A DNA stretch of 64,000 bases from Candidatus Latescibacterota bacterium (lineage in GTDB: Bacteria; Latescibacterota; UBA2968). A program made the position numbers and the translations under genes. The stretch lies in NCBI GenBank assembly GCA_965207885.1, contig OZ242311.1:5280001-5344000 (forward strand), in the 5' to 3' direction. Of the stretch, positions 9,689-59,500 are shown piece after piece. Positions within the stretch are counted from its first letter, which is position 1. Each line of letters begins with the position of its first letter. The notes beneath the pieces were generated by a model. That model did no database searches. It had not been told where the DNA came from and was given only the letters and a program-made list of their open reading frames with translations.

Positions 9689-9700
9689 TTTTTACCTCCT

Positions 9701-10474
9701 TTAATCCCAGAAATAGAATTTGAACCCGGCACTCAGATCAAACATCTGAAGCGGAAATGCCTTGTCCAAGCCCCATGCATCTCGAGGGCGGAGTTCGCCG
9801 AGAATAAAATGATACCGCGCACGCACATCCAGCGCGATCGTCTGCGTCACATGCGCTTCCAGCCCCAACCCCAACACCGCGGTCACGGCCGTGCGCGTAT
9901 CTTCCTGGCGGTCCATCACCACCTGGGGCAAAATATCGCCCTGGGCATCCACATTCGTCGCATCTACACCGCTGGCATCGGTCGGACTCTGACCGGGCCA
10001 AACGATATTTTCTGCTATGGTCTTGTGATCGTACACACCGCCACCCGCAACGATATAAGGCGAAAAACTCCCCTCATCCATTGAACGGTCCGCATTAAAA
10101 AACCACAACCCGGACAATAGCACACTATTAAAGCGATTCGTGTGCGAACTATTCGGGTTGATATCTTTGCTGCTATATTGCTTGGCTGTCAAAGCCTTGG
10201 GGGACCAGGTAAACTCACCGGATTCCAGAGCGCCACCATCCATCTGAGTGTGGTGAAACTCGGCTTCAACGGTCAGGCGAGAGCTACTCACGCGACTGGC
10301 TGTAAGCCCCCATTTATCCACACCACTCCCAAACCGCTCACCAAAGGTGAACAGGGGATTGGTATAGCTGACAAACCCGCCCAGGCCCCACTTACCGGCA
10401 ACCTGAGCCGAAGACATGCTTGCCGAAGCTAGTACACCTGCAACGACAAAACCTAAAACTTTAAACCATCTCAA
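9701..10474 (-). CDS. Outer-membrane beta-barrel protein (OmpA/OmpW-like)
   Basis: Signal peptide, SPYIVAGGG, LGLGLE and alternating beta pattern, ends GFKFYFWD. AGGAGGT RBS with a TTG start. Confidence 0.75.
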   Translation of the reverse strand: MRWFKVLGFVVAGVLASASMSSAQVAGKWGLGGFVSYTNPLFTFGERFGSGVDKWGLTASRVSSSRLTVEAEFHHTQMDGGALESGEFTWSPKALTAKQYSSKDINPNSSHTNRFNSVLLSGLWFFNADRSMDEGSFSPYIVAGGGVYDHKTIAENIVWPGQSPTDASGVDATNVDAQGDILPQVVMDRQEDTRTAVTAVLGLGLEAHVTQTIALDVRARYHFILGELRPRDAWGLDKAFPLQMFDLSAGFKFYFWD

Positions 10475-43147: not shown

Positions 43148-43969
43148 CTACTCCTCTGAGACATTCACATCCTCTTTGGGAAGCGCGTCCTCTGTACATA
43201 TCGAATCCAAGAATGGGTAAGATATGTGGTTTCGTTTTGCCTCGCGTCTTAAACGGAGTTGATAGAGTTCCTGCACACAACGCGCTTTTGTAGCTTCATC
43301 GAGCACAGCGAGGCAGTGTTGTTGAATATAGTACAGCGCATAGCCCGTTTCCACTTTTATGGGACCAATCACCTCACCTACCTCAGCGGCAAATAATAGG
43401 GACGCAACTTCAGCGGGCAAGTCTCGTCGGCTCTGGCGACCGAGATAACCACTTGCAGGGCGCGTGTGCTCATCGAGGGAATATTGACGCGCGAGGGTGT
43501 GAAAATCTCGCCCACCATCCTTGATCTGCATCGCAATCTCTTCGGCAATGTCCTGTTCATTGACCAGAATCCAGCATATTTCCCGACGTTCAGACGCCAG
43601 TTTCTGGCTTGCAAAATGCGTTTGAATCGCTTCAGTAGTGATTTGCGCTTTCAAACGCTCCTGGAGCATCTGATATTCAATTTCCCGTGCCATGTCAGTG
43701 AAGGTGATATTGCGTTGTGATAACCAGTTTTCCGTATCTTCAACACTTTCCAATCTGTTTTTGTACCGCCATTGGTCTATCCCCTTTTGCAGTTCATTTT
43801 GAGGAATTTTAATTTTTTCTCGTTGGGCGATTTGAAAGACCAGACCGCGTTGCGTAAAGAGCTCGTGCAAGCTGTCCTTGTTAGTCGCCCGCATTGATTT
43901 CACGATATGGGACAAGCGAATTTGTGTCTCGTTTATTTGAATGATGACGGGGTCAATTGAATTTGCCAT
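43148..43969 (-). CDS. PpiC-type peptidyl-prolyl isomerase associated with T1SS/bacteriocin export
   Basis: DFHTLARQYS, GYLG and GEVIGPI rotamase motifs. Starts 1 nt after the HlyD stop. Confidence 0.88.
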   Translation of the reverse strand: MANSIDPVIIQINETQIRLSHIVKSMRATNKDSLHELFTQRGLVFQIAQREKIKIPQNELQKGIDQWRYKNRLESVEDTENWLSQRNITFTDMAREIEYQMLQERLKAQITTEAIQTHFASQKLASERREICWILVNEQDIAEEIAMQIKDGGRDFHTLARQYSLDEHTRPASGYLGRQSRRDLPAEVASLLFAAEVGEVIGPIKVETGYALYYIQQHCLAVLDEATKARCVQELYQLRLRREAKRNHISYPFLDSICTEDALPKEDVNVSEE

Positions 43970-43970
43970 T

Positions 43971-45320
43971 TTATTTTTCAGCCTCTGGAGAAAGCGCGGC
44001 CAGGTCGCGCAATTGCCGCAGTGGATTGAGTGCGAGCATCAAAATGGACTGGCGGTCTGTTATGATTTCTGCCGCGCCCTTCATGCCAAACATAAATGCT
44101 TTTTCCTCGCCGTGTACAAGAATGGTCGTGTACTCCAGATCAATAATGCCTCTAAACACAGTTCCCGAACCGTCATCGCCCATTGCGTCAGGTGAAATCT
44201 GTCTCAAATAGCCGTGCTGGATGCCGTAGTCCTGAAATGGAAATGCTTCAAATTTGAGCTTTACCTTTTGTCCAGATGACAGCAGGCCCACGTCTTTATT
44301 TAATATCAGGGCTTCGGCTACAATCGGCGTCGAGGCCGGTGCAATAGTTACCAGTGTCTGGCCTTTATTGACCACTTGACCTGGTGTATTGACCAGAACT
44401 TGTGTGACGATTCCCGGTTCAGGTGCAAGAATTAGATCGATGTCTGCATCAACAGATCGATTAACCGTTTGTTTCGCTTGTTTGAGTCTGATTTCTGCAA
44501 TGTCATAAGCATTTTGGAAGTTTGCCCGAGTGCGTTCGAGTTCGAGTCGTTCTTCGAGAATTTGGCGTTTTAAGTCCTTTAGGGAAACCTCATAACGATT
44601 GATCTCTGCCATCCGCGCGGGCAGTTCTGCCAATGCGCTCAGATAGCGGACTTTGGCTTCATCGCGTGCCGCAAGGCTGATGAGTCTCTTTTCGTACAAT
44701 TTTTGGTTTTGTTCATATTGTTGTTTCAAATGTTCTACTTCTGCGGAACGGAATTGTATTTCGATCTCAAGGTCGGGGGGTTGAGACGTTTCTGTGTGTT
44801 TTCCAAGTGCTTCCCGGTAGGTCTGCATTGCTGTTTGCATGACGTGAACGCGATGCTCAAGCGCGGAGATGGTCTCTTTTGCCAAAATTCTTTTTTGCGG
44901 CAGGGTTTGTTGCAGATCAAATTCTGCTTTTTTGAATGCGATTTCTGCTTGTTCCAGTTCGCGGAACTCCTTGAGGGTTTCTTGCGAGCGGAGTCTGAAT
45001 AAGATCTGCCCTTCAGCAATCAGGTCCCCCGAATGGATAGCGATTTCCTGGATTTCGCCAGAACGCGGTGCCTGGATGTTCTGAACCTTTCCCAATGGGA
45101 CCAGACGAAATGGGGCTGTTGCGACAACATCGACCTGACCGTACCAGGCCCATGCTATGGAGATGGCAATAAAAAGCAGCAGAATATAAATAAGCGCGCG
45201 GCTGAAAAAAGGGTGTAATGATCCTAAAAACTCGATGGTGCTTTCGGCCAAATCCGTTTCGTTTTCAAGCGGTTTTTCGCGTGGTTCTATTGGCAATTTT
45301 TCAATTTGAGCTTCGGCCAT
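43971..45320 (-). CDS. HlyD family membrane fusion protein
   Basis: N-terminal TM, coiled coil, K.K.EAFPFQDYG...G...ISPDA and GM.G.AEI motifs. Confidence 0.93.
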   Translation of the reverse strand: MAEAQIEKLPIEPREKPLENETDLAESTIEFLGSLHPFFSRALIYILLLFIAISIAWAWYGQVDVVATAPFRLVPLGKVQNIQAPRSGEIQEIAIHSGDLIAEGQILFRLRSQETLKEFRELEQAEIAFKKAEFDLQQTLPQKRILAKETISALEHRVHVMQTAMQTYREALGKHTETSQPPDLEIEIQFRSAEVEHLKQQYEQNQKLYEKRLISLAARDEAKVRYLSALAELPARMAEINRYEVSLKDLKRQILEERLELERTRANFQNAYDIAEIRLKQAKQTVNRSVDADIDLILAPEPGIVTQVLVNTPGQVVNKGQTLVTIAPASTPIVAEALILNKDVGLLSSGQKVKLKFEAFPFQDYGIQHGYLRQISPDAMGDDGSGTVFRGIIDLEYTTILVHGEEKAFMFGMKGAAEIITDRQSILMLALNPLRQLRDLAALSPEAEK

Positions 45321-45358
45321 TGAAATTCCGTTTTTTGTAATGTGTTAGCACGCTCGCG

Positions 45359-48325
45359 TTACACGACCTGCAATTGTTGTCCCGATAGATTGCAATAAAG
45401 TCCTTGTTCTGCGATGAGTGTATCGTGCGTGCCCTGTTCAATAATGTTCCCGTCATCCAGTACAAGGATCAAATCCGCATCTTTTACTGTGCTCACCCGG
45501 TGGGCGATGATAAACGCGGTCTTACCTTCCAGCATGGTGTCTAACCCTTCCTGAATCGCTCGCTCGGACTCTGTATCCAGAGCATTGGTGGCCTCATCAA
45601 AGATGATAATTTTGGGGTCGCCATATAGTGCTCTGGCAATGGACAGGCGTTGTCGCTGACCACCGGAAAGTCCCACACCCTGTTCCCGAATTTTGGTTTC
45701 ATATCCCATTGGCAGGTCTTTGATAAAGTCGTGGGCATAAGCGAGTTTGGAAACTTCCATCAAACGATCCATATCGACATCTTTGACCCCTATGGCGATA
45801 TTTTCGGTGATGGTGGCATTGAACATGACGGGTTCTTGCAAAACCATCCCCACCTGACGCCGCAACCATCCAGGATCAAATTCGCGCAGGTCTGTGTCAT
45901 CGAGGGTAACGCACCCCTCTGTGGGATCAAATAGTCGGGGTATGAGTTTTACCAGTGTTGTCTTGCCCGCACCGCTACGGCCTACTATGGCTACTTTCTG
46001 GCCGGACGATATGTCCAAATTTATGTCGCTTAAGACATAAGGTTCTGTCGATCCCGATCCATACCGGAAGAATACATCGTCAAATGCGATGTGTCCTTCT
46101 ACGTCTGTGAGTTGAACCGAATAGTTGCGGTTGCGCGATGACTCGGTTCGCATATCGTAGATATCGTTTAATCGGTCCAGCCCCATTTTTGCCAGTTGAA
46201 TCTGCGGCCACAGGTTAATCAATCCCATAATTGGTCCCAATACCCTGCCACTGAGCATATTGAATGCGATTAGTTGACCGACAGATAAGTCGCCCTGAAT
46301 GACCAGGTTCGCGCCATACCAGAGCACGATGGTGCTGCCCAAAACATTGTTTAGCTGTCCAAAAGACCCAAATAGCATATTTGTTTTGATTGCAGTAAAA
46401 CCAATTTTTATTTCCTGGGTCAAGCGTTCTTCCCAGGACCATCGCGTGGATTTTTCGACTGCGAGGGTTTTTATGACTTCAATGCCGCGTAGAGAATCAA
46501 TGAGTAAGGATGACCATTCTGAGCGGGCGAGAAAAGAGCGCTGGTTGATGGACTTGAGGATTGGGGTGTAGATTAAGGTCAGGATAATGCTAAACGGTAT
46601 GAATGCCAGAACATAGAGTGTCAAAGTGGTGTGGTAATAGAACATCAAGCCCAGATAGACAAAGATCATGATTGCATCAAGGACGGCTGAAATAGCCGTT
46701 TCTGTCAACAAGCTCCTCAAGTATTGGCTCTCTCGAAATCGCGTCATGATTTCACCGGTTCTGCGGAGGGCGAAAAACCGCATGGGCAGACGGAGGAGAT
46801 GGTGGTAGATGTGTGATAACATCGAGATGCTGATGCGCGCTCCCACATATCCAATCAGGTAGTTGCGCAGTGATGATGTGGCGATCCGAAATAAGGTGAT
46901 GATGATCATGCCTAAGAGCAGGAGATTGAGCAGACTATTATCCTGGTGAACGAGGACTTGATCGAGGATCATCTGGGTGAACAGAGGAGAAGCAAGGCCA
47001 AAGAGGTTCAGTACAAGGGAGGCGATCAGGATTTCGATGAGAATGCCGAGGTATGGACGGGCGAGTGGGAAAAACCGCCTGAACGATGATTTTCTTCCCC
47101 TGTATCTTGCGACCTTGTCGGTGTATTCAAGTATTAAGGCGAGTTTGGACCACTTGTCTTCAAATTCTTTGCGGGAGATTTTTCGGCGTCCAAGTGCAGG
47201 GTCGGCGATCCATGCGTATTTTGAACTGATGCGATACAGAACGACAAAGTGATAGCCTTCCCAGTGTGCGATAAGCGGCAGGTCTCTTTCTCCGATTTCA
47301 CTGTATCCAATCCGCACGCCGCGCGTTAAAAAGCCCAGGTTTTCAGCGGCTTCGGCAAGTGCGGATAGGGATGTGCCTTCCCGCGAGACATTGGCCATGT
47401 CTCGAAGTCGGTTTAATCCAATGGATTGTCCATAATATTGACAGATCATGCCGAGGCAGGCCGCGCCGCAATCGGTCTCATCGTGTTGCTTGATGTAGGG
47501 AAATGTGATGTAATTTCGCAGTTTTCGAGGGCTTTGATCAGAGATGCTATTTTCAGGCTCGATTTCTATTGTTTTAATTCGACCATTTTGCGGCACTGTC
47601 TCGCGCGGCTCTTCTTGTTCATTTTTCTCGAAGATCCGAATGAGTTGGGGAGCACTTTCAAGCACTCTGGCAAAGTCGCTGTGCGAAAGGGTGTAGAGCA
47701 CGACTTCTGTTTCTGTTTCAATAGTGATTTCATCACACTGCATGCCGCTAAAAAAGTCGCCCGGCTTTAACCTTTTGGAAGGCTGGTTCCCCTCTCTCAA
47801 CTGCAAGGTTCCGCGGCCAATGAGATAGAGTTTTTTTGCTTCTTCATCCTGCCATACTGCTTTTTCTCCTTCCGCAATAACCTTCCGCGCCAGACATTGG
47901 AAAAAGAGCTGCATAACCTCCTGGAGGTTTACGGTGTCCAGCGCTATGAATTTTGTGAAGTTTCGATAGGCGATGTCTCGCACTTGATCGAGCAGGTATG
48001 GAGTCAGTTCCCGATGCTCTGATACGAGGGCGTGAAAGTTGCCCTGAGAAATTTTCAGTACGATTGAGGATTCAACCGCTCGAACCGTTGCCCTGCGCGG
48101 TTTGCCCGTGAGCAATGCGCCTTCTCCGCAATGGTCGCCGGGAAAGAGATAACCGAGGGTCTGCATCTCATCATTGCTGTCTCTCGTTAAAACCCTGAGT
48201 TGCCCGGATACGACATAGTAAAAGCAATCGCCCCTGTCGCCTTCATAAAACAAAACCTCTCCGAGATTGACCTGCATTTCCTCTGCATGAGGTCTCAGAG
48301 AGGCATATAGATCGGTTCGTTTCAT
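45359..48325 (-). CDS. Peptidase C39-containing ABC exporter with N-terminal cNMP-binding domains
   Basis: QHDETDCGAACL (catalytic Cys), HWEGYHFVV, Walker A GRSGAGKT, LSGGQRQR and FDEAT motifs. Confidence 0.95.
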   Translation of the reverse strand: MKRTDLYASLRPHAEEMQVNLGEVLFYEGDRGDCFYYVVSGQLRVLTRDSNDEMQTLGYLFPGDHCGEGALLTGKPRRATVRAVESSIVLKISQGNFHALVSEHRELTPYLLDQVRDIAYRNFTKFIALDTVNLQEVMQLFFQCLARKVIAEGEKAVWQDEEAKKLYLIGRGTLQLREGNQPSKRLKPGDFFSGMQCDEITIETETEVVLYTLSHSDFARVLESAPQLIRIFEKNEQEEPRETVPQNGRIKTIEIEPENSISDQSPRKLRNYITFPYIKQHDETDCGAACLGMICQYYGQSIGLNRLRDMANVSREGTSLSALAEAAENLGFLTRGVRIGYSEIGERDLPLIAHWEGYHFVVLYRISSKYAWIADPALGRRKISRKEFEDKWSKLALILEYTDKVARYRGRKSSFRRFFPLARPYLGILIEILIASLVLNLFGLASPLFTQMILDQVLVHQDNSLLNLLLLGMIIITLFRIATSSLRNYLIGYVGARISISMLSHIYHHLLRLPMRFFALRRTGEIMTRFRESQYLRSLLTETAISAVLDAIMIFVYLGLMFYYHTTLTLYVLAFIPFSIILTLIYTPILKSINQRSFLARSEWSSLLIDSLRGIEVIKTLAVEKSTRWSWEERLTQEIKIGFTAIKTNMLFGSFGQLNNVLGSTIVLWYGANLVIQGDLSVGQLIAFNMLSGRVLGPIMGLINLWPQIQLAKMGLDRLNDIYDMRTESSRNRNYSVQLTDVEGHIAFDDVFFRYGSGSTEPYVLSDINLDISSGQKVAIVGRSGAGKTTLVKLIPRLFDPTEGCVTLDDTDLREFDPGWLRRQVGMVLQEPVMFNATITENIAIGVKDVDMDRLMEVSKLAYAHDFIKDLPMGYETKIREQGVGLSGGQRQRLSIARALYGDPKIIIFDEATNALDTESERAIQEGLDTMLEGKTAFIIAHRVSTVKDADLILVLDDGNIIEQGTHDTLIAEQGLYCNLSGQQLQVV

Positions 48326-48358
48326 GATGTTTTCCAGCCCCGCTTTGCATAAAGTCTT

Positions 48359-48931
48359 TTACTCAGCTTCAAATACACGCCACTTTGAGTCGGGTGACTT
48401 CTTGAGCACTGTCTTGTCCGAAAGCAGAACCTGAAATATGTATCGACTGCCATTAACAGGCATCTGTGCATGGACTGAATAGCAACGCCGGCACGCCTTT
48501 ATCTTGATCTCTGTGTCACAGGGGATACAGTCCATGTGTCCTGAAGGGTTTCTTTTACATCGCAGGCACTCAATTTGTTCGATCAGGTTTTTGTTCCGTT
48601 CCTGGTATTTCACCAACTCGCCAGGAGCTATCATGGCACCTATATACTCCAGACCTGCAGAGTGACACTCTTTGCAGTACCATCCTGAAAAGTCGCCGTA
48701 CACGAGTTGACAATTACCACATATGGAAATGTACTCCACATCTGGCTCGCGATTCTCAAAACGCCTGAAGTATGCCAGAATATCGGCCTTATCATCATCG
48801 GACAATTTCTCAAATGGCTGTAGTTTGGATCCACACTCCTGGCAGGGGTCGCCAAAGAAACGTTTTGCCCAGAGACCACCAATTCCCAGGACTACAATAA
48901 TGAGAATGGTCAAAATAATAAACGCTTCCAC
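48359..48931 (-). CDS. Membrane-anchored Cys-rich protein with six CxxC pairs
   Basis: N-terminal TM, then CQEC, CGNC, CKEC, CLRC, CIPC and CRRC. GAGGA RBS with a GTG start. Confidence 0.7.
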   Translation of the reverse strand: MEAFIILTILIIVVLGIGGLWAKRFFGDPCQECGSKLQPFEKLSDDDKADILAYFRRFENREPDVEYISICGNCQLVYGDFSGWYCKECHSAGLEYIGAMIAPGELVKYQERNKNLIEQIECLRCKRNPSGHMDCIPCDTEIKIKACRRCYSVHAQMPVNGSRYIFQVLLSDKTVLKKSPDSKWRVFEAE

Positions 48932-49074
48932 AGTAGGGTCCTCTTGTCAGTGTTTATTGCTATGTCCTCTGCCCTACGGGTTTTCGTCTCTATCCATCTG
49001 TGTCCATCTGCATAAAACGCTCAAATGGACCGCTGCGCAATTATACACCGTTCACTCGCGTTTTTTTTGCGGAT

Positions 49075-50430
49075 CTATTCAATCAATTCTTTGACATCGT
49101 GAATGCGAATATCAACCTCAGGCAAGTGTTTATTCAGAATGTCTATGATGTAATCTTTCGGACCGAGAAAAAGCATGATCATATTCTCCTGTACAAAGAA
49201 TTTTTCGAGAAAAGCTCGCACCTCAACATCGGTGACGGAATCATAACCGCCTTTGTGAGTTGGCGAATTATAGATGGCTTGATATACCTCATTGTCCAGT
49301 CTTCGCTGTAGTGTCAACAACTCATGAGCATAGATGACATTGCGACTTTCACGCAACTCTTTTATTGCCGCCCAAAAGCGGGGATTGTCGGGCAGTTTTC
49401 GGATGAAATCGGACATTTTTACGATCAACGCTTCACTATTATGGAATTGAGGATCAGCAAAAATTTCAAGAAACATGATTCCCTCTGATGATGACAAATT
49501 GCAAGAAGGGCCATAGACCAATCCCAACTCTTCTCTGAAATGTGTATTGAGCAAGCCTTGAGTACCATATCGTACAAGTATCCTGGATATCATTTTTGGA
49601 ATATAGCTCTCTTCTTTTTCTAAATTTCCACAAGGTATCAGCCAAAAACAAAAAATACTTTTTACGCCTGAAAAATTAAATACAAAAGCTGTAGGACCGA
49701 TATTATAATCCGTTATTGGAAATTTCGGTGAATGCACAAACCCCCCTGCCTGTCCGTGTTGCAGCAAGTGGGTCTCTCGCTTTTCTATAACTGGACGAAG
49801 TAGTTTCGAGATCTCAGTAGAATCGAGGTCTGAAATCACCTTAAAAAACACCACGTCTGTTTTCAGCAGTTGATCATAATATTGCGTGATGTCCTTAAGC
49901 GAGAGATTTTTGAGCGTTTTTAAAGATATATGTTTCTTTATGCCTTTTGTTTTTGAAAGTGCAAAATTTTTTATAAACGTATAATCCCGCAGGTAAGCCC
50001 GGTAATCAGCAACCAGCCCTTTTTTTATATCTTGTAATTCAGACTCAGAAAACTCGAGATTATATATGAAATCGCGGACTATTTTTATAGATCTGCCACT
50101 ATTCTCAGATAAGCCATAAATGGATATTGTTCGGTATAGGGTATTAGTAGTGATATTCAGACGAGTACCTAATGCTTCTAATTGATCCATATACCCCTGC
50201 TTTTGGACAGCCTTCCAGATCAATTGTGAGACTACCATTGCAAGCCCAGCTTGATATGGCTGTTCCGCACCGCTCCCAGCTCCGAGGAAGATAATCTCAA
50301 TTTTGGTCAATGGCGCGCGTTTGTCCTGGCGATAAAAAATTTGGTGGTTAGGTATCTCTGCAAAAGCGGGCAGGATACTAACCACGCAGCACAGAGCAAA
50401 ATTAAGTATCACTTTCAGAAACATATTCAT
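49075..50430 (-). CDS. M16 peptidase-like subunit lacking the catalytic motif
   Basis: Signal peptide, AGS..E...AGLA and REELGLVY motifs. No HxxEH. Confidence 0.75.
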   Translation of the reverse strand: MNMFLKVILNFALCCVVSILPAFAEIPNHQIFYRQDKRAPLTKIEIIFLGAGSGAEQPYQAGLAMVVSQLIWKAVQKQGYMDQLEALGTRLNITTNTLYRTISIYGLSENSGRSIKIVRDFIYNLEFSESELQDIKKGLVADYRAYLRDYTFIKNFALSKTKGIKKHISLKTLKNLSLKDITQYYDQLLKTDVVFFKVISDLDSTEISKLLRPVIEKRETHLLQHGQAGGFVHSPKFPITDYNIGPTAFVFNFSGVKSIFCFWLIPCGNLEKEESYIPKMISRILVRYGTQGLLNTHFREELGLVYGPSCNLSSSEGIMFLEIFADPQFHNSEALIVKMSDFIRKLPDNPRFWAAIKELRESRNVIYAHELLTLQRRLDNEVYQAIYNSPTHKGGYDSVTDVEVRAFLEKFFVQENMIMLFLGPKDYIIDILNKHLPEVDIRIHDVKELIE

Positions 50431-50549
50431 TGGTCTTTCGAGAGAACTTCCTACGTAAATTTTTTATCTATAAACAGTGTGACAAGACCACCCAGCAGCG
50501 TTAGAAAATCTACGCCTGTCAATATCATAATTCCATAGTGTAAGGATGT

Positions 50550-51887
50550 TCACGGAGGTGACATTTTCTTTTTTGACACCGTTAGAGAATAGGTTATGGA
50601 ATTGTCATCCGTCATGTACTGGTCTATAATGCGAGGGATGTCTTCTCTGCGAATGGATTTGAGGTCTTTTATCAATTTGGGATATAGGAGGGGATCGTTG
50701 GCGTGGGCAAATGCCTGTCCAAATGAATAAGCCATGTTTGAACGGTTGTAAAATGCGGAATACATTGTGGTCAACTGCTGGTTTCGAGCCGTATTGAGTT
50801 CTGCGTCGGAGATGGATTTCAGATTCTCCAACTCTTTGCTGATCATGTTCTGGAACCTATTTCTGGACGTATCATAGGGTAGTTCTGCATAGCAATGCAT
50901 CAAGCTAAATCCTTTATAGCTGCTGAGTTCCACCTGAAAAACACTTGCGAGCTTAGAACCAACGACGGTAGATCGCAAAGAATTTGAGGACTTATCCAAG
51001 ATATAGTCCAGAATAAGCAGGCCAGCGTAGTCGCGATGTCCTAAATTGGGTGTGTACCAGCCCTTTCTGAATATAGTAACAATGAGATTTTTTAAAGTGT
51101 GTTTTAATCTTTTTCCGAGCACTTCACGGTTCGGATATTGGGGAGAATACGGTTTGCTCGGTATTTGCTCATTGCCATAAGCTTCGTCCAATTTTTTCAA
51201 GACCTGGTCAACATCCACATCGCCGATCACGACAATCAGTCTCTTTTGACGGCGCAGAAAATTCTCATAATACGCTTTCAAATCATCAGATTCGAGTTGT
51301 GTAATAAAAGCCTCAGTACCAAGGTCATTAAAATTCTTTTTTTTGTAAATTAAAGAAAAAAAAGAATTCTTGTGTCTAAGTTTTAAACTTGATAATCTAT
51401 GACTTCTTTCCGTCAGTACGATTTTCTTTTCTTTTTTTATAATTTCCTCATTGATCACTGTGTTGTAATATCTTTCCGAATCTATCTTAACCGCGAGATC
51501 AAACTTATCCTTCGGAAATTTTAGTATAAAGCATGTAAAATGATAATCAGTAAAGGCTTTTTGTTCTCCTTCATTATCTGCGATAATTTGATTGAGTTTC
51601 CCCGGCGCATAGCTGCCAATGCCCGCTATGACATGCTCTAAAAAATGTATCCGTCCTTGTTGACCTTCCTCTTCATCTGCCGAGCCAGCATCATAAAAGG
51701 TATGGTATTCAAAGGTTGGGATTGTTCGATCTACAACAATAACAGCGTCGAGGTTGGGATTGATGGTATAATATTGCGCGACGAGTTCTTCAGATAATGT
51801 GGCTGTGCCAACAAGATCGTAGGCAACGCAAATGCCCGTTGGCAAGACGCATACAAGGAATGAGGTGAGTGCGTAAGTTTTCATCAT
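50550..51887 (-). CDS. M16 (insulinase/pitrilysin) metallopeptidase, catalytic subunit
   Basis: AGSADE..G..G..HFLEH, AFT and EKKIVLTE motifs, signal-peptide-like N-terminus. Confidence 0.85.
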   Translation of the reverse strand: MMKTYALTSFLVCVLPTGICVAYDLVGTATLSEELVAQYYTINPNLDAVIVVDRTIPTFEYHTFYDAGSADEEEGQQGRIHFLEHVIAGIGSYAPGKLNQIIADNEGEQKAFTDYHFTCFILKFPKDKFDLAVKIDSERYYNTVINEEIIKKEKKIVLTERSHRLSSLKLRHKNSFFSLIYKKKNFNDLGTEAFITQLESDDLKAYYENFLRRQKRLIVVIGDVDVDQVLKKLDEAYGNEQIPSKPYSPQYPNREVLGKRLKHTLKNLIVTIFRKGWYTPNLGHRDYAGLLILDYILDKSSNSLRSTVVGSKLASVFQVELSSYKGFSLMHCYAELPYDTSRNRFQNMISKELENLKSISDAELNTARNQQLTTMYSAFYNRSNMAYSFGQAFAHANDPLLYPKLIKDLKSIRREDIPRIIDQYMTDDNSITYSLTVSKKKMSPP

Positions 51888-51969
51888 GTTTGATACTCAG
51901 CAAAGTTGGGAATGGCTGCCTCGCCTATATATATCTGGATACATTCTTGCACTGCACAGTATAAAATCT

Positions 51970-52002
51970 GAAGGTTCTTCCAGCAGGCCTGAAAGAACCT
52001 TC
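51970..52002 (-). terminator. Stem-loop or terminator downstream of the GG-leader gene
   Basis: GAAGGTTCTTCCAG...CTGAAAGAACCTTC inverted repeat followed by a short T run on the minus strand. Confidence 0.55.
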
Positions 52003-52059
52003 TTAGTCATGTAATCCCTGAGAAACCGGACTATGTAGTGTTAAACGTGTACAATGGTA

Positions 52060-52656
52060 TCAGTTACCTACTCTCGTATTATCTTGTCCGGTTGTCTCAA
52101 ATCCATCAAAAAGTCCATTCTCATCCTCCTCACCCCCCTCATCATTGGTACCACAATTACCATCACAATTCTCATCATCACAATTCTCACAATTCTCATT
52201 ATCATCTTCTCCCTCACCTTCTCCCTCACCTTCTCCCTCACCACAATCCCCACTGTCGCCATCCTCTGGTCCTGCCATCTGATCACTATAAAAAAACTCC
52301 TCAGCAGCATCTGGATTAACAGGCTGGTTTATTTGCGTCCAGTCGGGTAACTGATCCCCTTCCCTATACATCTCGAGTGGTGATATCTGTGGTCCATTGT
52401 CCCCAAAATTAGGTGATGGTGGTAGCCCAGGTTCAGGAGAACCAAAAACAGAGGTGACAATATCCCAGATGGTAGGTCCCGTGTTCCAATCTATTGGGTC
52501 TTCATCTTTGCATTTACTTTTCCCCCCATCCCCACCCCGAGCCATGTTCATTTCTTGTATTGAAATGGTCTCGGAGAGGATAGAGAGCGGTTTACAAGTA
52601 AGTCCTGTAATGGATGTGGTGATACCTTCACTCTGTTCAGAAATATTTTTTGACAT
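52060..52656 (-). CDS. Double-glycine-leader acidic Cys-rich protein (putative exported RiPP precursor), 198 aa
   Basis: AGGAG RBS. ETISIQEMNMARGG fits the [I/L]S..E[M/L]....GG leader consensus. Core is Asp/Glu/Gly-rich with 6 Cys. Confidence 0.75.
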   Translation of the reverse strand: MSKNISEQSEGITTSITGLTCKPLSILSETISIQEMNMARGGDGGKSKCKDEDPIDWNTGPTIWDIVTSVFGSPEPGLPPSPNFGDNGPQISPLEMYREGDQLPDWTQINQPVNPDAAEEFFYSDQMAGPEDGDSGDCGEGEGEGEGEGEDDNENCENCDDENCDGNCGTNDEGGEEDENGLFDGFETTGQDNTRVGN

Positions 52657-52667
52657 AATACTATCTC

Positions 52668-53538
52668 CTAGGTAGTGTCTGAAAAGTAAGCTTTGAAGAG
52701 TTGTCTGATACAGGCCAGCTTGACCATAGTGAGAAAATGAGTCGCCTTTTTTTCAAATCGGGTCACAATCCGTCGGCAGTGTTTAAGCCAACCAAAGAGA
52801 CGCTCCACGATATTGCGTTTGGCATATAATCTTTTATCACACTTAGGCCGTGGTCCTCTCTTACGCCGTTTTCTGCCTTTGGGAATCGCCTTGTTTGGGA
52901 TAGCAGCCTTGATACCCCGTTTGCGTAGATAGACTCTGATGCGTGAGACATCATAAGATTTATCAGCTACCAGATACTTGGGTCGGTTTCTTGGACGCCC
53001 TCGTTTGGTGGGTATGCATACCTTTGACAGTAGCCTTTCAGCCTGTGTGGATTCTGACTGGTTACCAGGGAGAAGATCCACTGCTAAAGGATGCCCGACT
53101 GCATCGCAAAGAAGATGGATTTTCGTGGTCAAACCGCCACGAGAGCGTCCTAAAGCGTGATCTGGGGGCTCTTCTTCACCCTTTTTGCCCTTTTTTTTTC
53201 GCTCCTGCCGCGGCTTGTGTGGCTCGAATATGGGTTGCATCCATCATCCAGGTCGCATAATCTAAAAGACCATCTTCACCCAATTTGAGATGTAGCTTTT
53301 CTACAATGCGATCAAAGGTGCCATCCTGTTTCCATTTGCAGAATCGGTCAAAGGCTGTCTGCCAAGGACCATATCGTTCTGGCAGGTCGCGCCAAGCTGC
53401 ACCTGAACACAATATCCAGAAGATCCCGTTGAATAATGTACGATCATCCCGACGGGGACGACCCATCTTCTTCGGCGGTGGGAACAGGTCTTGGATCAGA
53501 TGCCAAGCCTCGTCGCGCAGTTCATATCTCCGTTGCAT
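52668..53538 (-). CDS. IS5 transposase expressed by programmed -1 frameshift (orfA 53176-53538, orfB 52668-53240)
   Basis: WRDLPERYGPWQT, MDATHIRA, GRSRGGLTTKIH, ADKSYD and RNIVER.F..LK..RRI.TRFEK motifs. A9 slippery run at 53191-53199. Confidence 0.92.
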
Positions 53539-53610
53539 ATCATACTCCTTGGTTTAGGGCGTATGCTGCAACTAAAATACATACTTTACGACTTTTCAGA
53601 CACTACCTAG
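52668..53610 (-). mobile_element. IS5-family insertion sequence (IS427-like, two ORFs)
   Basis: Perfect terminal inverted repeats GTAGTGTCTGAAAAGT / ACTTTTCAGACACTAC, each flanked by CTAG (target duplication CTAG or TA). Coordinates include the flanks. Confidence 0.93.
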
Positions 53611-53642: not shown

Positions 53643-54586
53643 TCACTTAAGAAATTTTGCTGTCTCGCCATCTTTACACGTACGATCTCTGTCGTGAAAA
53701 AATAGAAAGTTGCGAAAAAACGTATTGACGATTGTCATATAACAGGCATTCTGTTTTCTTTTTTGAGCTTCTGGTGGAAGATCCGTGAACTCCTGGATGC
53801 GCTCAGGTGTCACCCCATGGATGTCGCGAATGGTATTGAACAGACCAATCAGATCTGTTTCACAGCAGTTATTCGCTTTAGCCAGCACGCTCAAATACAC
53901 ATCATCAACATGCGATAATGCCTTTGCAATTCGGGTGCGAGTCTCACTGACAGACTGAACATCCGAAAGCCTATCAGGCGCATCCCAACACGGTGTCACG
54001 GATTTGATCTTACGCAGCACGGCCAGATGGTGGTCTTCGCGGATAATCTCCACAGCAAAACTACTGGGATAGACGGACAGCCAGTTCTCGACAATTTGCT
54101 TCTCATAAGACCTTCTGAAATCGTCCAGAATGACCAGACCACCAATCTTGATCTGGTCATAAACCTGGTAAAGGCATGCCTCCCGACCTCGCAAGGTATA
54201 GACTGGCGGACCATCAATAACCACGCAATCTATCTCTTCCTTCCAAAACACCCCATCTTCATAAGTCAAAAATTCCGTATCTCCATAAGATTCAAGGGTA
54301 ATTGGACGATGTTTGATCGATAGATTGCGCTTATCCCAGAATGTTTGCATCAGACTCAGGGTCTCTGCAAAATTCCGCCAGTCGCCTTCTATAGACAGAA
54401 CCTCGGTTCCAAAAACGCCATCGCCAGACGGATAGAACTCGGACCACTTCCAAATTCGAGAATTCTTTCTACTGGAGACATCTGAAGAAGCGTGGTTGCG
54501 ATTCTCTCAAACGCTGTCTCACCAATGCTCCAGCCCGCGTCCAGATTAAGCCGATCCGGTATTTTGAGGTCGGAAATTTTATGCAT
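53643..54586 (-). pseudogene. Class I SAM-dependent methyltransferase, frameshifted near 54405-54415
   Basis: ILEFGSGPSS in ORF 54389-54586. The other frame continues TEVLSIEGD...VIDGPP...GG.VILDD..R..E. One base is missing. Confidence 0.8.
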
Positions 54587-54589
54587 GCC

Positions 54590-56032
54590 TTACTTCTTTA
54601 CTTCAGATACCACTTCCAGATCATATCGTCGCTGCAACAAAGACGCATCTTCCTCTGCAATCTCCATACACATCTCCATCGCCAATTCATAGCGATAGCG
54701 CGTCTGTTCACAAGCAACAGGGTTGGGATACATCGGATCACCCGTTGTCGTCCGCGCCTCCCAAAGACATCCGCCACCACACAGGTTGCGCGCCCAGCAC
54801 GTCTTGCACTCAGGACGATTATTCACATTGAACTGCGCGTCAAAATGCTGCTGCTTTTCGCGGTCAATACCCGCAAACACATCACCCATCTTAAACTCGG
54901 GCGCATCGGCCAAACTCGAACAAAAATAAATCGACCCATCTGCTGCAATAGCCAGATACTGCTTGCCACCCAGGCATCCATGACAGGATTTCTGGCGCGT
55001 CAACAGTTTCTGAATCCGCGGATCAAACTCTTCACTCTCTTCACCATTTAGAATGGCTTTGAGCGCACGCCTACTCCGCTTGTAAATTTGCTGCTTCAAC
55101 GCAGGTATGTGTTCTTCCCGAATCGCATAAGGCGCATCCGGTGAAACAACAGCCGGACCAACAAGCGCGTTATCAGTACCCAGAGAACGCAACGCATCGG
55201 CAATCTGATCCTCGTCCATATCATACGCTGTCATAACAGCCTGCAAATACACCCTCTCGGGAACCTCAGCAGTCAATTTCTGTACATTCTTTGCCACAAC
55301 ATCATAAGTGCCAGAACCATTGTGAAACTTGCGAATGCGGTCCTGTGTCTGACGCCCACCATCCAGACTGACCTTAATTTGAAACTTTTCATCAACCAAA
55401 AACTGCTTCATCTCGTCGGTCAACAACGTGCCATTGGTCACAATGCCAAAACCAACCTGCACACCCAATCGCGCTGATAGGGATTTGGCAAATGGGACAA
55501 GCTCCTGCATCAATGGAAAATTCAGAAGCGGCTCTCCGCCAAAAAAATCAATCTGGCATCGTCCCAATACCTGAGCCTCGGCAACAATCCAGCGTATGGC
55601 TTGCTCGGCAACATCTATTTGCATCAGCATCGCCTTACCGCCATAATCTCCACCGTGGGCAAAGCAATAAGCACACTGAATATTGCAAGTATGGGAAACG
55701 TGCAAAGACACCTGCAACCGATCTGTCTGCGATACGCCACAGGCTGCCACCCCTTCTGTCGTCGGCACACTGGATACCAGAGGCAAAGCACCATCCGAAA
55801 TCAAACCCACCTGGGACAGTTCCTCAATGGCCTCGACAATTTCTTCTGCCTCGTATTGATCAGCCAACCTCTGAACAACCTGCGAAACAGACAAACCCTC
55901 GCAACACTCTAAAATCGCCTCGAAAAGAGTATCCAATTTAAAAAATAGACCCGTCTCAATCTGATAGACAATCGGTTGTTCTTGCTCTTCTGTTTGAAAA
56001 AGATGCATTTCACATTTCTGAATGCACAGCAT
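54590..56032 (-). CDS. Radical SAM/SPASM peptide maturase with a probable N-terminal RRE (CteB/PapB/QhpD-like)
   Basis: CNIQCAYC, FFGGEPLLN, TNGTLL and SLDG motifs. SPASM C..C.GG...DG.IY.C...C..CWARNLCGGGC...C. GAGGAG RBS 8 nt before the ATG at 56032. Confidence 0.93.
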   Translation of the reverse strand: MLCIQKCEMHLFQTEEQEQPIVYQIETGLFFKLDTLFEAILECCEGLSVSQVVQRLADQYEAEEIVEAIEELSQVGLISDGALPLVSSVPTTEGVAACGVSQTDRLQVSLHVSHTCNIQCAYCFAHGGDYGGKAMLMQIDVAEQAIRWIVAEAQVLGRCQIDFFGGEPLLNFPLMQELVPFAKSLSARLGVQVGFGIVTNGTLLTDEMKQFLVDEKFQIKVSLDGGRQTQDRIRKFHNGSGTYDVVAKNVQKLTAEVPERVYLQAVMTAYDMDEDQIADALRSLGTDNALVGPAVVSPDAPYAIREEHIPALKQQIYKRSRRALKAILNGEESEEFDPRIQKLLTRQKSCHGCLGGKQYLAIAADGSIYFCSSLADAPEFKMGDVFAGIDREKQQHFDAQFNVNNRPECKTCWARNLCGGGCLWEARTTTGDPMYPNPVACEQTRYRYELAMEMCMEIAEEDASLLQRRYDLEVVSEVKK

Positions 56033-56056
56033 AGCACGCACTCCTCAAAACCCAAA

Positions 56057-56245
56057 TCACTTAGCCTGATCATCAACCTGTTCGAAATCGTCCCAATCGT
56101 CATCATCGGGAAAGGGCAGAGGGGGAACGCCAAAATCACCGGAGGGACAGAGCACTTCAAAACTATGCACAGTTTGGTACATAAGGATGCTACCTTCTTG
56201 ATCTATCGTTCCATTGATCAAAGTCAACTTACGTCGCGTTGTCAT
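56057..56245 (-). CDS. Putative RiPP precursor peptide, 62 aa
   Basis: AAGGAG RBS. First gene after the sigma54 promoter and directly upstream of the rSAM gene. Single Cys in CPSGD and an acidic tail PDDDDWDDFEQVDD. Confidence 0.75.
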   Translation of the reverse strand: MTTRRKLTLINGTIDQEGSILMYQTVHSFEVLCPSGDFGVPPLPFPDDDDWDDFEQVDDQAK

Positions 56246-56291
56246 GTTACTCTCCTTGATAATGCAAAAATCTTAGATGCCGTTACTATAT

Positions 56292-56307
56292 TGCAAGATC
56301 CGTGCCT
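56292..56307 (-). promoter_or_regulatory. Sigma54 promoter of the RiPP operon
   Basis: Minus strand reads AGGCAC-GGATC-TTGCA (GG-N10-GC), about 46 nt upstream of the precursor ATG and next to a bEBP gene. Confidence 0.8.
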
Positions 56308-56411
56308 AAAATCGCCTCAGCACAAAAAAAAGCACTTGAAAATGCTCAAGTGCTTGAAAAACAAAGAGATAAAATTTAAAAATTATTTGTATTGTAAATG
56401 CGGCATCCAAA

Positions 56412-56533
56412 TATATGTGTATCTAATAGATACGCATATAACCGTTCATTTAGGCAAAATATGTATAAATGATTGATTAATATAAAAATAAATTAAAGTG
56501 CATCTAAATGATACATTGTCACAAAATGATACA
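56412..56533. promoter_or_regulatory. Candidate upstream activator sites (TGTATC-N5-GATACA, three copies)
   Basis: TGTATC-TAATA-GATACG at 56418, TGCATC-TAAAT-GATACA at 56499 and TGTCAC-AAAAT-GATACA at 56517, 110-230 bp upstream of the -24 box. Confidence 0.6.
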
Positions 56534-56545
56534 TTCGTTCAATAT

Positions 56546-59500
56546 CTATCTCAACCCCAAACGATTCATCTTTCTATACAAGCTGGCACGCACCAACCCC
56601 AGTTCTTCGGCCGTACGCTTAATATTACCCTCGTATTTTTCGAGCGCATCCATAATCAACCGTCTCTCATACTCCTGCATACGATCTTGTAAACGCCCTC
56701 CTGCTTGCGTGTGGGCATCCGCCCGTGCAGACAAGTGATATTCGACAAAGATACCCGACACAGCGTGAATGACAGCTTCTGAAAACAAATCAGGCGTAAT
56801 ATCACCCTCTTCTTCTGACAATGCTACCGCACGTCGAATTTCATGCTCCAACTCGCGCACATTACCAGGCCAGTTGTAACTTGTGAGTGCCCTGATTGCA
56901 CCCACTGTCAACCCTCCAACCGACTTTCTTGCCTCTTCTTTTGCTCGAATGAGCAGATGTCCAGCCAATAATGGCACATCTTCAAGGTGTTCTCGTAAAG
57001 GTGGCATATCGATCTGAATCCCGTGCAACCGGTAATACAAATCTTCGCGGAAAGAACCGTTTTCAACTTCTTTTTTTAAGTCTCGATTGGTCGCTGCAAT
57101 AATGCGTACATCCACTTCGCGATCCTCTGTTTCTCCCACACGCCGAATCTCACCTTCTTGCAACACCCGCAACAAACTTCTTTGCAACTGCGGCGGAGCA
57201 TCGGCGATTTCATCGAGAAGAACCGTGCCCCCATCAGCCGCTTCAAAAATCCCCTTATGATCTTCACTCGCGCCAGTAAACGCGCCTTTTTTGTGCCCAA
57301 ACAACTCACCCTGCAACAACTCTGGTGATAGTGTAGCACAATTTTGTGACAAAAATCGTTGATCTTTGCGCCTGCTATTGTAGTGTATGGCACGCGCAGC
57401 CAACTCTTTGCCCGTACCTGTTTCGCCCTGCACAAGTACGGGAATATCACTTTGTGAAGCGCGTTCGATAAGCTGGTAAACCACCTGCATAGCATCACTC
57501 TGCCCGACCAGATCATCAAGCCGGTACCGCCTTTCGACCTGTTGCTGAAAATATTGTGCTTTCTCTTCCAGTTGTTCATACATCCTCGCATTGACCAGCG
57601 CCAGCCCCACCAGATTCGCAAAAGCCTGTAAAAACGTCTGATCTGCTTCAGAAAATGCGTTGTCAATACCGCGATGATCCACATATAGCGCACCGATAAC
57701 ACCTTCCTTAACATGAAAAAGAGGCACACACAATACAGACCGAATGTGGTAGTCTATCACGCTCTGATACCGATTTAATCTTTCGTCTGTCTGGGCATCC
57801 ATGCTCAAAACGGGTTCATTGGTCTCAATAACGCGGCGAATAATACCCCGACTCAGTTCTTCTGCATCATCTGCTTCTACATTGTAGTAGCGCACGGCAT
57901 CAACCACAAAGCCTTTTGGGGTCTCATTTTTAATCGCAATAAGCACCCGCTCTGCTGGATAGACAGCCAACAAATTACCCAGAGTTCGATCCAATAACAC
58001 CTTGACATCGCGCTCTGTGGTCAATTCGTGGCTCACTTCGTAAAGCAAGCTCAAACGATCGACAGACAATGTATCGACTGAAATCCCAGAAATAGATGCG
58101 GCACCTGCTTGCGCGATAGCAGGCAAGTCCTCCTTGCGAGAAGATTTATCCAATTGATTTAATAAAATCCGTGTTTTCTCCAGAAAATAAGACATCTCCA
58201 TCTCTTCAAACGCCTGTTTTGCCGCTTCAAGATGTACTTGCGCTTTTGGTACATCATCGCGCTCGAGATAAAACTCCCCTGCTATCAACAGCGCACGCGC
58301 CCAGTGATCGCCTTTAGATTCTCTTCGGCATTCAATCGCCTGCTCAAAAGCCTCTTCAGCCTCAGCTATCCGCCCTGCATGAGCAAAAGCCGCACCAATA
58401 CCACAATACACCAAGGGCAATATGCCCGTGAACATACCCGATGTTTGTTGCGTACCTTCACTGGCTTTTTCTGCCCATTCAAATGCTGTTTCTGTATCTC
58501 CCATTCTCGCAGCAACCGTTGCCGCAATCGCATAAGCGCGATAGATATAATCTCTTCGCGATATTTGCAAAAACCCCTCCACCGAGGTCTCGGCATATTC
58601 CAATGCCTCGGCAAAATCACCGCGTTCCAGTGCCAATTCTCCCAGATAAAGGAAATTCACTGCCTCCCCATACACAAGTCCTTGCTTCCTCCACTCACCA
58701 ATGACCTCATAGCAAACGGCTTCTGTACGGGTGAGATCTCCCAGATAAAAATAAACCCTTTGAAGCGAATTAAGTGCCCCAATGCGATGATGTTCAAATC
58801 CAAGCTGTTGAGATGTTTTTACAGCCACTTCTAGATATTCTTTGGCTGTTTCAAATCGAAAGTCCACCAATGCAGCTTGACCTTCTCGAACTTGTATAAA
58901 AGCGTCTTTCTGCGGATCTATCAACACACGACGTTTCTCTATTTCCAGACGCATATACTCAAGTGCTTCTTTGTGCCGTCCAGATACATCGCACAAATAA
59001 GCCAAACTGCCCAATGCTTGAACTTCTCCGTCGAGATCATCCAGTTCACGATAAAGTCGCAATGCCTCCAGCATATATTCTTTTGCAATTTCTCCATGTT
59101 GAAGTACGCTGTGAATACCACCTTCATTCCACAAAATACGCGCTTTCAAATCTCTCCGGTCATCGGGCAATAACGCCTTTGCCTCGCCTAAAAGTTCCAA
59201 TGCTTTATTGTGTTGACCACAATTGCGCAACGTATCTGCATAATCGCACAAAAAGTCGATAGCATTTACTTGTGATTCAAAAACGCCATCCGCCTGCTGT
59301 ACAGCCTCAAACCGTCTCAATGCCTGGCGATAAGCGTGTTTTTCCAATGCTTTTTTGCCCGCCATGAGCGTATATTTCACAGCCTTATCTCGTTCTTCTG
59401 CCGCCGCAAAATGATTCGCCAATTCTTCTATCAATTCTTCTGCATCTTCCGAATCTTCCAGAGCATTGCCAATTTCTCGATGCAACAACCGCCGCCGCAC

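Follow-up and report, generated by a model that had tools for sequence, protein, structure and literature searches.

Wang et al. (2011; PMC3140520) catalogued in cyanobacteria a class of putative bacteriocin clusters, group II, in which a long-type transporter with CAP_ED and C39 domains is accompanied by HlyD, SurA and M16 proteins and by one to several double-glycine precursors of 39-152 amino acids (aa) per cluster, with a maximum of 164 aa overall. According to the same source, NHLP and N11P precursors are mostly negatively charged and the clusters show transposase-linked rearrangements. The products of group II-type clusters have remained uncharacterised since they were catalogued. Proteins that carry a double-glycine leader and depend on, or co-occur with, C39 transporters have also been assigned envelope or biofilm roles, as described for the MAM protein of Faecalibacterium, 135 aa long and a helical, hexamer-forming protein in the AlphaFold modelling of the paper in question (PMC12184118), and for EbfG1-4/PteB of Synechococcus elongatus, a larger non-bacteriocin cargo (PMC4997328). 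The present analysis concerns a 64,000-nucleotide stretch (hereafter the window) from a Candidatus Latescibacterota genome (GCA_965207885.1, contig OZ242311.1, positions 5,280,001 to 5,344,000), and more precisely the gene in it for a 198-aa protein with a double-glycine leader, hereafter the precursor, which belongs to a cluster of the group II type.

The account that best explains the comparative data, and that is considered probable on the basis of leader signature, gene content and a docking model, is that an exporter encoded about 4 kb downstream would cut the precursor after G42 and carry its long, strongly acidic core out of the cell. The gene and its two parts are located as follows:

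52060..52656, minus strand: precursor gene, 198-aa double-glycine-leader protein (open reading frame and translation)
52531..52656, minus strand: leader codons, residues 1-42, within the precursor gene
52063..52530, minus strand: core codons, residues 43-198, within the precursor gene

The precursor open reading frame (ORF) is a real gene, with 15 homologs in a search of 5.8 billion proteins. In the family alignment the first 38-42 residues are near-invariant, the sequence past the GG diverges, and I31, E35, M36, G41 and G42 are invariant in two alignments of 16 and 14 members. The ratio of nonsynonymous to synonymous polymorphism (pN/pS) over a 30-codon block of 14 copies is 0.26 (pS 0.33, pN 0.085; the pairs are not independent), and the leader is therefore conserved as a protein. 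A leader profile built from 14 copies and scored against 1.84 billion representative proteins recovered 31 clusters at E <= 1e-10, all with the leader at residues 1-42 and with lengths of 40-213 aa; the next matches were two unrelated repetitive proteins, at 5e-8 and 4e-7. Judged by these profile scores, the leader family is sharply bounded. Literature searches found no description of it, the leader matched no NHLP, Nif11, HetP or other curated leader model of Pfam or NCBIfam in any of 16 members, and a comparison of the same members with both databases at E up to 5 produced no leader-family model, just isolated matches of single members. The family occurs in 8 of 61 related genomes, all of one genus (this genome and 7 of its 20 other genomes), with 1-5 copies each; the genus is labelled Candidatus Latescibacterota, and one homolog bears the NCBI name Gemmatimonadota.

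The leader terminates in ISIQEMNMARGG and carries I31 at -12, E35-M36 at -8/-7, A39 at -4 (in other members A or V) and G41-G42 at -2/-1, the positions -12/-8/-7/-4/GG, hydrophobic or acidic ahead of the GG, being those of the PCAT-substrate signature as quoted in PMC12184118. Two marks of a double-glycine substrate are present, namely the leader signature and a nearby transporter with a C39 domain (Pfam Peptidase_C39, 3e-40). The alignments of this domain to LahT150 (6mpz, E 1.6e-21) and PCAT1 (E 2.6e-19) show that it has the catalytic Cys, His and Asp. A model of the complex between C39 domain and leader scored 0.77 against 0.38 for the best control, a pass that may only reflect likeness, because similar complexes have already been solved; 58 of 80 solved complexes attain the mark applied, as do 2 of 110 mismatched pairs, and the runs gave at least 81% contact agreement with a partner pLDDT (predicted local distance difference test) of at least 55. 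The modelled contacts involve leader residues 27-31, 33 and 35-45, near the catalytic Cys and His, and place G41 beside the catalytic His. Exporter orthologs (92-94% identity) are present in seven of the eight family-holding genomes and in none of the 13 others of the genus. Two relatives, G001 and G016, hold 84-85% identical exporter copies in decayed loci without a precursor gene, and G018 holds an exporter fragment only.

The locus is comparable to PCAT1-CtA and LahT150 (6mpz, 4ry2, 6v9z) in its C39 alignment, in its leader signature and, as far as the docking model goes, in a GG placed at the active site. It differs from them in that the exporter has two extra N-terminal cyclic nucleotide (cNMP)-binding domains and an HlyD partner, in that the leader, of 38-42 aa, has an N-terminal half which is conserved and falls outside the modelled interface, and in that the cargo is a polyanion of 156 aa. 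Although MAM and EbfG1-4/PteB share the double-glycine leader and the link to C39 transporters, neither has any sequence relationship to the precursor, and the core, an unstructured chain by prediction, is much more acidic than MAM.

The 156-aa core contains 43 D+E and 5 K+R (net charge -38), 25 Gly, 13 Pro and six Cys (positions 49, 138, 156, 159, 164 and 168), as well as a (GE)6 run and a NCENCDDENCDGNC stretch, and is free of the cationic, amphipathic and hydrophobic segments that membrane-active bacteriocins typically have. An earlier note on this DNA had described the 42-aa leader and the extremely acidic 156-aa core, four of six core Cys with D/E at +4 (C49, C138, C156 and C168) and the (GE)6 and NCENCDDENCDGNC repeats; all of these are literally present, as is the CX3D spacing that it had pointed out in a neighbouring 62-aa peptide (CPSGD). 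A seventh Cys, C21 of the leader, was absent from it. Its suggestion that the protein is the exported substrate of the C39 transporter is strengthened by the leader signature, the C39 catalytic residues, the co-occurrence of the exporter and the docking model, and its statement that the product is no cationic antibacterial agrees with the net charge and the want of any cationic segment. The search for leader-sharing proteins that it had called for yielded the 31 clusters and eight genomes given above, with the leader conserved.

An AlphaFold2 model of the precursor built on a 16-row alignment had a mean pLDDT of 51, a predicted TM-score (pTM) of 0.12 and three short helices only, and was too poor as a query for a fold search; a search of the ESM Atlas with the core gave no usable match. 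On this model, the core is probably largely unstructured. Separately, contigs of sequencing runs X1 and X4 carry an alternative sequence across the (GE)n repeat (window 52206-52242), which suggests length or sequence variants of the run in the population.

Across the family, 52 distinct members were compiled, of which the 46 with a core of at least 100 aa were used for core counts. The excess of D+E over K+R is at least 15 in 44 of these 46 cores, D+E makes up 11% to 47% of the core, and two low-charge outliers look frameshifted. The number of Cys is even in 38 cores (four in 20, two in 9, six in 6, eight in 1 and none in 2). Short blocks recur, joined by G/S/P-rich linkers: WDWLT in 13 of the 46, C-x3-C-x3-CC, NCExCDDENC and LDGMEGDF in 11 each, PDEENS and ADSSGTQD in 9 each. 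Since such blocks recur in varied combinations, the cores are mosaic; they are also hypervariable and almost always polyanionic.

The genes that follow the precursor in the direction of transcription are listed here together with a conserved stem-loop:

51970..52002, minus strand: conserved stem-loop with a U-rich tail, between the precursor gene and M16a (terminator-like site)
50550..51887, minus strand: M16 peptidase, active subunit (M16a), with an HFLEH zinc motif and an N-terminal hydrophobic signal-like segment (Pfam Peptidase_M16 and M16_C)
49075..50430, minus strand: M16 peptidase-like protein, inactive subunit (M16b), without HxxEH and with a signal-like N-terminus (Pfam)
48359..48931, minus strand: 190-aa protein with an N-terminal membrane helix and six CxxC pairs (conserved cassette member)
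45359..48325, minus strand: 988-aa ATP-binding cassette (ABC) exporter with two cNMP-binding domains, a C39 domain (about 47120..47503), an ABC membrane domain and an ATPase (Pfam, NCBIfam)
43971..45320, minus strand: HlyD-type periplasmic adaptor (Pfam, NCBIfam, synteny)
43148..43969, minus strand: PpiC/SurA-like rotamase protein without a signal-like N-terminus (Pfam Rotamase)

Synteny was read from 20-kb stretches round the family genes of seven other genomes. The recurring order is REC-AraC regulator, precursor, M16a, M16b, a 130-146-aa protein at some loci, the 190-200-aa Cys-rich membrane protein, the cNMP-C39 ABC exporter, HlyD and the PpiC-like protein. At nine loci with 14 family genes in all, an M16a/M16b pair directly follows 11 of the genes; two others form part of a tandem array that precedes such a pair, and the last is followed by a decayed pair. 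In G019, G012 and G018, the precursor/M16/Cys-rich cassette is repeated two to three times in tandem ahead of a single exporter. The HxxEH motif is found in all 14 M16a copies and in none of the 14 M16b copies, and the N-termini of both subunits were judged signal-like by reading the sequence. M16 pairs are 58-86% identical to one another, against 92-94% for the exporter. The similarities of M16a and M16b co-vary (Mantel rho 0.69, P 2e-4), while cores and their neighbouring M16 pairs show no significant correlation in similarity (Mantel rho 0.13 and 0.15, P 0.15 and 0.13, 11 cassettes). In NCBIfam the M16 proteins have weak matches only, to YfmH/YfmF, and the PpiC-like protein matches TIGR04500 (putative peptide maturation system protein) weakly, at 69 bits against a cut-off of 180. 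For the 190-aa Cys-rich protein, Pfam gave only a sub-threshold zinc-ribbon match and the AlphaFold2 model was unusable (pLDDT 37).

Several side observations concern the same stretches. The 130-146-aa protein has no Pfam match, is absent from the window and lies just upstream of the Cys-rich or exporter gene in relatives (L025 10770-11171, L019 14502-14924, L024 6885-7307, L026 15663-16055). At L020, L022, L023, L024 and L026, the gene before the precursor encodes a REC-AraC response regulator, and these loci also have in common a conserved region of about 150 nt upstream of the precursor, in which a short frame opening with ATG and a strong ribosome-binding site are found; a radical S-adenosylmethionine (rSAM) module has taken the place of both the regulator gene and this region in the window and in G012. 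The decayed loci L076 (G001) and L077 (G016) have kept the M16 pairs, the Cys-rich protein and the stem-loop, have lost the precursor, and have an exporter and an HlyD gene broken by transposase genes.

M16 enzymes prefer unstructured peptides, and M16B heterodimers stand beside peptide precursors in the cases of PqqF/PqqG and of AlbE/AlbF of subtilosin. The pair described here resembles these in that a subunit with HxxEH and a subunit without the motif adjoin the gene of a ribosomally made precursor; it differs in that both subunits have signal-like N-termini and in that there is one pair per precursor cassette.

The closest described gene arrangement is that of the cyanobacterial group II clusters. 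All five parts by which they are defined (PMC3140520) lie on one strand of the window, at 43148..52656, and transposase-linked rearrangements are found in both. On the other hand, the host belongs to another, uncultured phylum, Candidatus Latescibacterota; the leader matches none of NHLP, Nif11 and HetP; precursors of 150-219 aa exceed the 164-aa maximum reported there (PMC3140520); and the cassette adds the Cys-rich membrane protein, a 133-aa protein and the REC-AraC regulator. New in this system are the leader family, the phylum in which it occurs, and a cargo of such length, charge and mosaic make-up. Its strongly conserved leader makes the family a clean set of substrates for exploring the limits on cargo size and charge, and the role of the M16 pair, in clusters of this type.

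The stem-loop occurs upstream of M16a in 14 places; of its 13 predicted pairs none is broken and four are changed on both sides, and the window copy folds with a minimum-free-energy z-score of -4.6. Rfam gave no match for it or for any other part of the window. It resembles a terminator or an attenuator. A conserved palindrome was also considered as a possible sigma-54 promoter, a reading that was dropped since, by eye, its spacing does not fit.

Upstream of the precursor lies the second group of genes:

53643..61420, minus strand: adjacent separate module (Pfam, NCBIfam)
56546..61420, minus strand: 1624-aa Ser/Thr-kinase/sigma-54 activator (Pfam, NCBIfam)
56057..56245, minus strand: 62-aa peptide gene, just upstream of the rSAM gene
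54590..56041, minus strand: rSAM/SPASM maturase with radical SAM, SPASM and PqqD-like domains (Pfam, NCBIfam)
53643..54586, minus strand: methyltransferase-like gene, frameshifted near 54407, with an intact 302-aa copy elsewhere in the genome (Pfam, NCBIfam)

The best matches of the rSAM protein in NCBIfam, all below the cut-offs, are SCIFF, QhpD, Nif11-type and PapB maturases. It is present in 16 of the 21 genomes of the genus, in two to three copies of 88-94% identity, and the 62-aa peptide has the same distribution; the peptide gene lies just upstream in 35 of 37 rSAM places, the other two being contig-end fragments as read from the listings. This genome (G000) holds three copies of the module, the others at 1383513-1391397 and 1886192-1893984. 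In all three, rSAM and peptide follow an activator of about 1600 aa with Ser/Thr kinase, AAA, TPR, GAF and sigma-54 domains, and one copy continues with the intact 302-aa methyltransferase-like gene. The family of the 62-aa peptide has one invariant Cys, a VPPLPFP block and an acidic tail of the DDDDWDDF type. Its tail and many precursor cores (EDWEDF and WDWLT types) have in common an acidic-Trp-acidic theme, with no alignable similarity. Short run contigs cover the frameshift site of the methyltransferase-like gene without differences.

The distributions of precursor family and rSAM gene do not coincide. Among the 21 genomes, six have both, two have the family only (G009 and G018), ten have the rSAM only and three have neither, so that the consistent co-occurrence with an rSAM gene expected of a thioether precursor is not seen. 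In G002, G006, G019 and G020, the nearest rSAM gene lies 105 kb to megabases from the family locus. Adjacency is limited to G000 and G012, where about 90 bp of the methyltransferase 3' end are fused about 35 nt upstream of the precursor start codon (insertion sequence excluded), in place of the upstream region of about 150 nt common to other loci; as both genomes have the same junction, it is counted as a single event. The precursor and the 62-aa peptide have no significant similarity (best E 0.37). On this distribution, the precursor cassette and the rSAM module are two independent modules side by side, and the rSAM most likely acts on the 62-aa peptide and not on the precursor.

PapB is specific for CX3D motifs. 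The Cys-X3-Asp/Glu spacing of the precursor was compared with that of shuffled cores, in which 1.6 Cys on average have D/E at +4 and four or more are obtained with a probability of 0.046. Five of the six core Cys lie within a stretch with 38% D/E, and other offsets score as high in the core, with four for -6 and three for several others. Given the shuffling result, the D/E-rich setting and these other offsets, the spacing carries little weight. In the 46 family cores, D/E stands at +4 of 57 of 168 Cys (34%), against 29% D/E overall, and among the copies of the 62-aa peptide that reach the Cys, a manual count on the listing found it in 3 of 28. Neither in the precursor itself nor family-wide does the spacing exceed chance, and the acceptor motifs beyond composition that characterise PapB/QhpC-type substrates are lacking in the precursor both in the shuffling and in the family-wide rate. 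In the 62-aa peptide, the cross-link partner is not a conserved Asp at +4. The earlier note had taken the repeated Cys-X3-Asp/Glu as a meaningful motif and had proposed multiple thioether stapling by the neighbouring rSAM; the motif is no commoner than chance, and the stapling is not supported, in view of the pairing of the rSAM with the 62-aa peptide and of the existence of the family without an rSAM. In comparison with the ranthipeptide, QhpC and SCIFF systems (PapB, QhpD, ScfB), the likeness resides in the domains and sub-threshold matches of the neighbouring rSAM, whereas its partner is the 62-aa peptide and CX3D/E is not enriched. Cluster mining would nevertheless be led by the rSAM next door to label the precursor a large ranthipeptide, a mis-assignment that the comparative data correct. 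Calls of 'ranthipeptide' by antiSMASH in metagenome-assembled genomes of sponge-associated Latescibacterota are mentioned, without detail, in PMC12993501.

Between the two modules lies a mobile element:

52669..53610, minus strand: IS5-type insertion sequence (IS), 942 bp, with CTAG flanks, inverted repeats and two transposase frames (Pfam DDE_Tnp_1, DUF4096)

The IS ends 12 bp upstream of the precursor start codon and its transposase frames run on the same strand as the precursor. With 23 copies of 99.7-100% identity in this 6.2-Mb genome, it has been active very recently. G012 has the uninterrupted junction without the IS. Logan contigs of four runs (two samples of one study, possibly including the source sample) bridge the precursor gene into the IS end, and none in those runs skips the IS; for RNA records covering 51900..52700, no holder was listed. 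The precursor has kept its ribosome-binding site; as the IS has displaced the upstream region, the expression of this copy is uncertain.

The probable route from gene to exported product can be set out in steps. The C-terminal half of the leader, from the I at -12 to the GG, would dock into the C39 domain of the cNMP-gated ABC exporter, which would cut after G42; the polyanionic core would then be pumped out through the exporter and its HlyD adaptor. Outside the cytoplasm, the core Cys, even in number, could form disulfides, and the M16 heterodimer, with its Sec-type signals, may trim or degrade the core. The stem-loop after the precursor gene would set the ratio of precursor to machinery transcripts. 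The rSAM would have no part in the route, having presumably arrived as a separate multicopy module joined upstream in an ancestor common to one other genome, G012. As to function, our guess is that the exported polyanion binds cations, serves as a matrix or surface component, or interacts with competitors or the host.

Several points weigh against this account. Leader residues 13-26, including the invariant C21, are as conserved as the rest and lie outside the modelled C39 interface, from which we infer that they may serve a second partner. A tripartite exporter would bypass the periplasm, the normal site of signal-bearing M16 proteins, so that the role given to the M16 pair is tentative; the lack of co-variation between cores and M16 pairs argues against core-specific proteases. 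The low pLDDT may stem from the shallow 16-row alignment and not from true disorder. In G012 as in this genome, the precursor gene directly follows the rSAM module on the same strand, and co-transcription and cross-talk are possible. This copy may be silenced or driven by read-through only, the IS severing it from its upstream region. Finally, the family members are mutually related, and counts over them are not independent.

Two of the rival explanations turn on what lies upstream. According to one, several Cys-to-Asp/Glu thioethers would be made in the core by the neighbouring rSAM/SPASM enzyme before export, giving a giant ranthipeptide-like product. The enzyme does score best, below threshold, against thioether-forming maturases, it is encoded on the same strand and, before the IS arrived, was separated from the start codon by no more than the methyltransferase-like gene and about 40 bp, the junction is kept in G012, and the six core Cys sit in a D/E-rich setting. 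However, this rSAM is no more distinct than its other copies, each with its own precursor directly upstream in nearly all places; G009 and G018 have the family and no match to rSAM or peptide, four genomes hold the two at least 105 kb apart and ten have the rSAM without the family; the conserved junction is one event; the spacing is at chance and is kept in few copies of the 62-aa family; Cys counts are mostly even, with no Cys at all in 2 of 46 cores; and the leaders of precursor and peptide are dissimilar. Taken together, these observations make stapling very improbable. The other rival is that the IS has uncoupled this copy from its promoter, so that the locus is silenced or heading for the decay seen in relatives. 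The distance of 12 bp, the recent activity of the IS, the frameshift in the neighbouring methyltransferase-like gene and the broken exporters, lost precursors and transposases at the G001, G016, G009 and G018 loci all speak for it; the intact ORF, the retained ribosome-binding site, the intactness of all downstream genes in the window and the direction of the transposase frames, which makes read-through possible, speak against it, and we regard it as quite unlikely.

The two remaining rivals accept export and differ on what the product does. The cassette may be one of bacteriocin and immunity, in which the acidic protein or a fragment of it harms competitors, the extracytoplasmic M16 pair and the Cys-rich membrane protein protect the producer by degradation or blockage, and the diversity of cores reflects an arms race. 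Such a reading would suit the tandem cassettes before a single exporter in G019, G012 and G018, M16 pairs that diverge more than the exporter does, mosaic and hypervariable cores, the REC-AraC regulator before the precursor in five loci (L020, L022, L023, L024 and L026) and the first classification of the cluster type as bacteriocin-like (PMC3140520), but a core without the segments of membrane-active bacteriocins, and without co-variation with the adjacent M16 pair, makes it unlikely. Alternatively, the precursor may be a pro-protein whose long acidic chain is a mere carrier, from which the M16 heterodimer excises one or more short Cys-rich, Trp-rich acidic or C-terminal modules that act as signals or metal-binding peptides. 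The preference of M16 enzymes for unstructured peptides, the short recurring blocks with their G/S/P-rich linkers and the response regulator gene adjoining most loci are in keeping with it, as is the proposal of Wang et al. that M16 domains imply cleavage sites beyond the GG (PMC3140520). Yet no conserved cleavage motif was found between the blocks, the cassette has no histidine kinase or receptor, and the M16 pairs do not track core type, so that this reading, too, appears improbable.

Going beyond export as such, the family can be viewed as a recombining repertoire of secreted, disordered polyanions, a class of cargo undescribed for C39 exporters. Under this proposal, which is tentative and, with the roles it gives to blocks, leader and M16 pair, possible though doubtful, the shuffled blocks (Cys-knot, acidic-Trp and acidic-Cys) would have extracellular tasks, namely binding cations or minerals, building a matrix, or acting on host or competitor. 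A second cassette protein, with the Cys-rich, PpiC-like and 133-aa proteins as candidates, would recognise the conserved N-terminal half of the leader and the invariant Cys in it, and the M16 pair would be a step of extracellular processing or clearance.

A paralogous cluster of a cNMP-C39 exporter (54% identity), HlyD and a PpiC-like protein is found elsewhere in the genome (L078, G000 about 2.05 Mb). Ahead of it lie a 75-aa ORF (9465-9692), which has a GG site and an acidic core with Cys and Trp, and a 126-aa acidic ORF (9786-10166); exporters of this paralog group (55-58% identity) occur across the genus and in a sister family.

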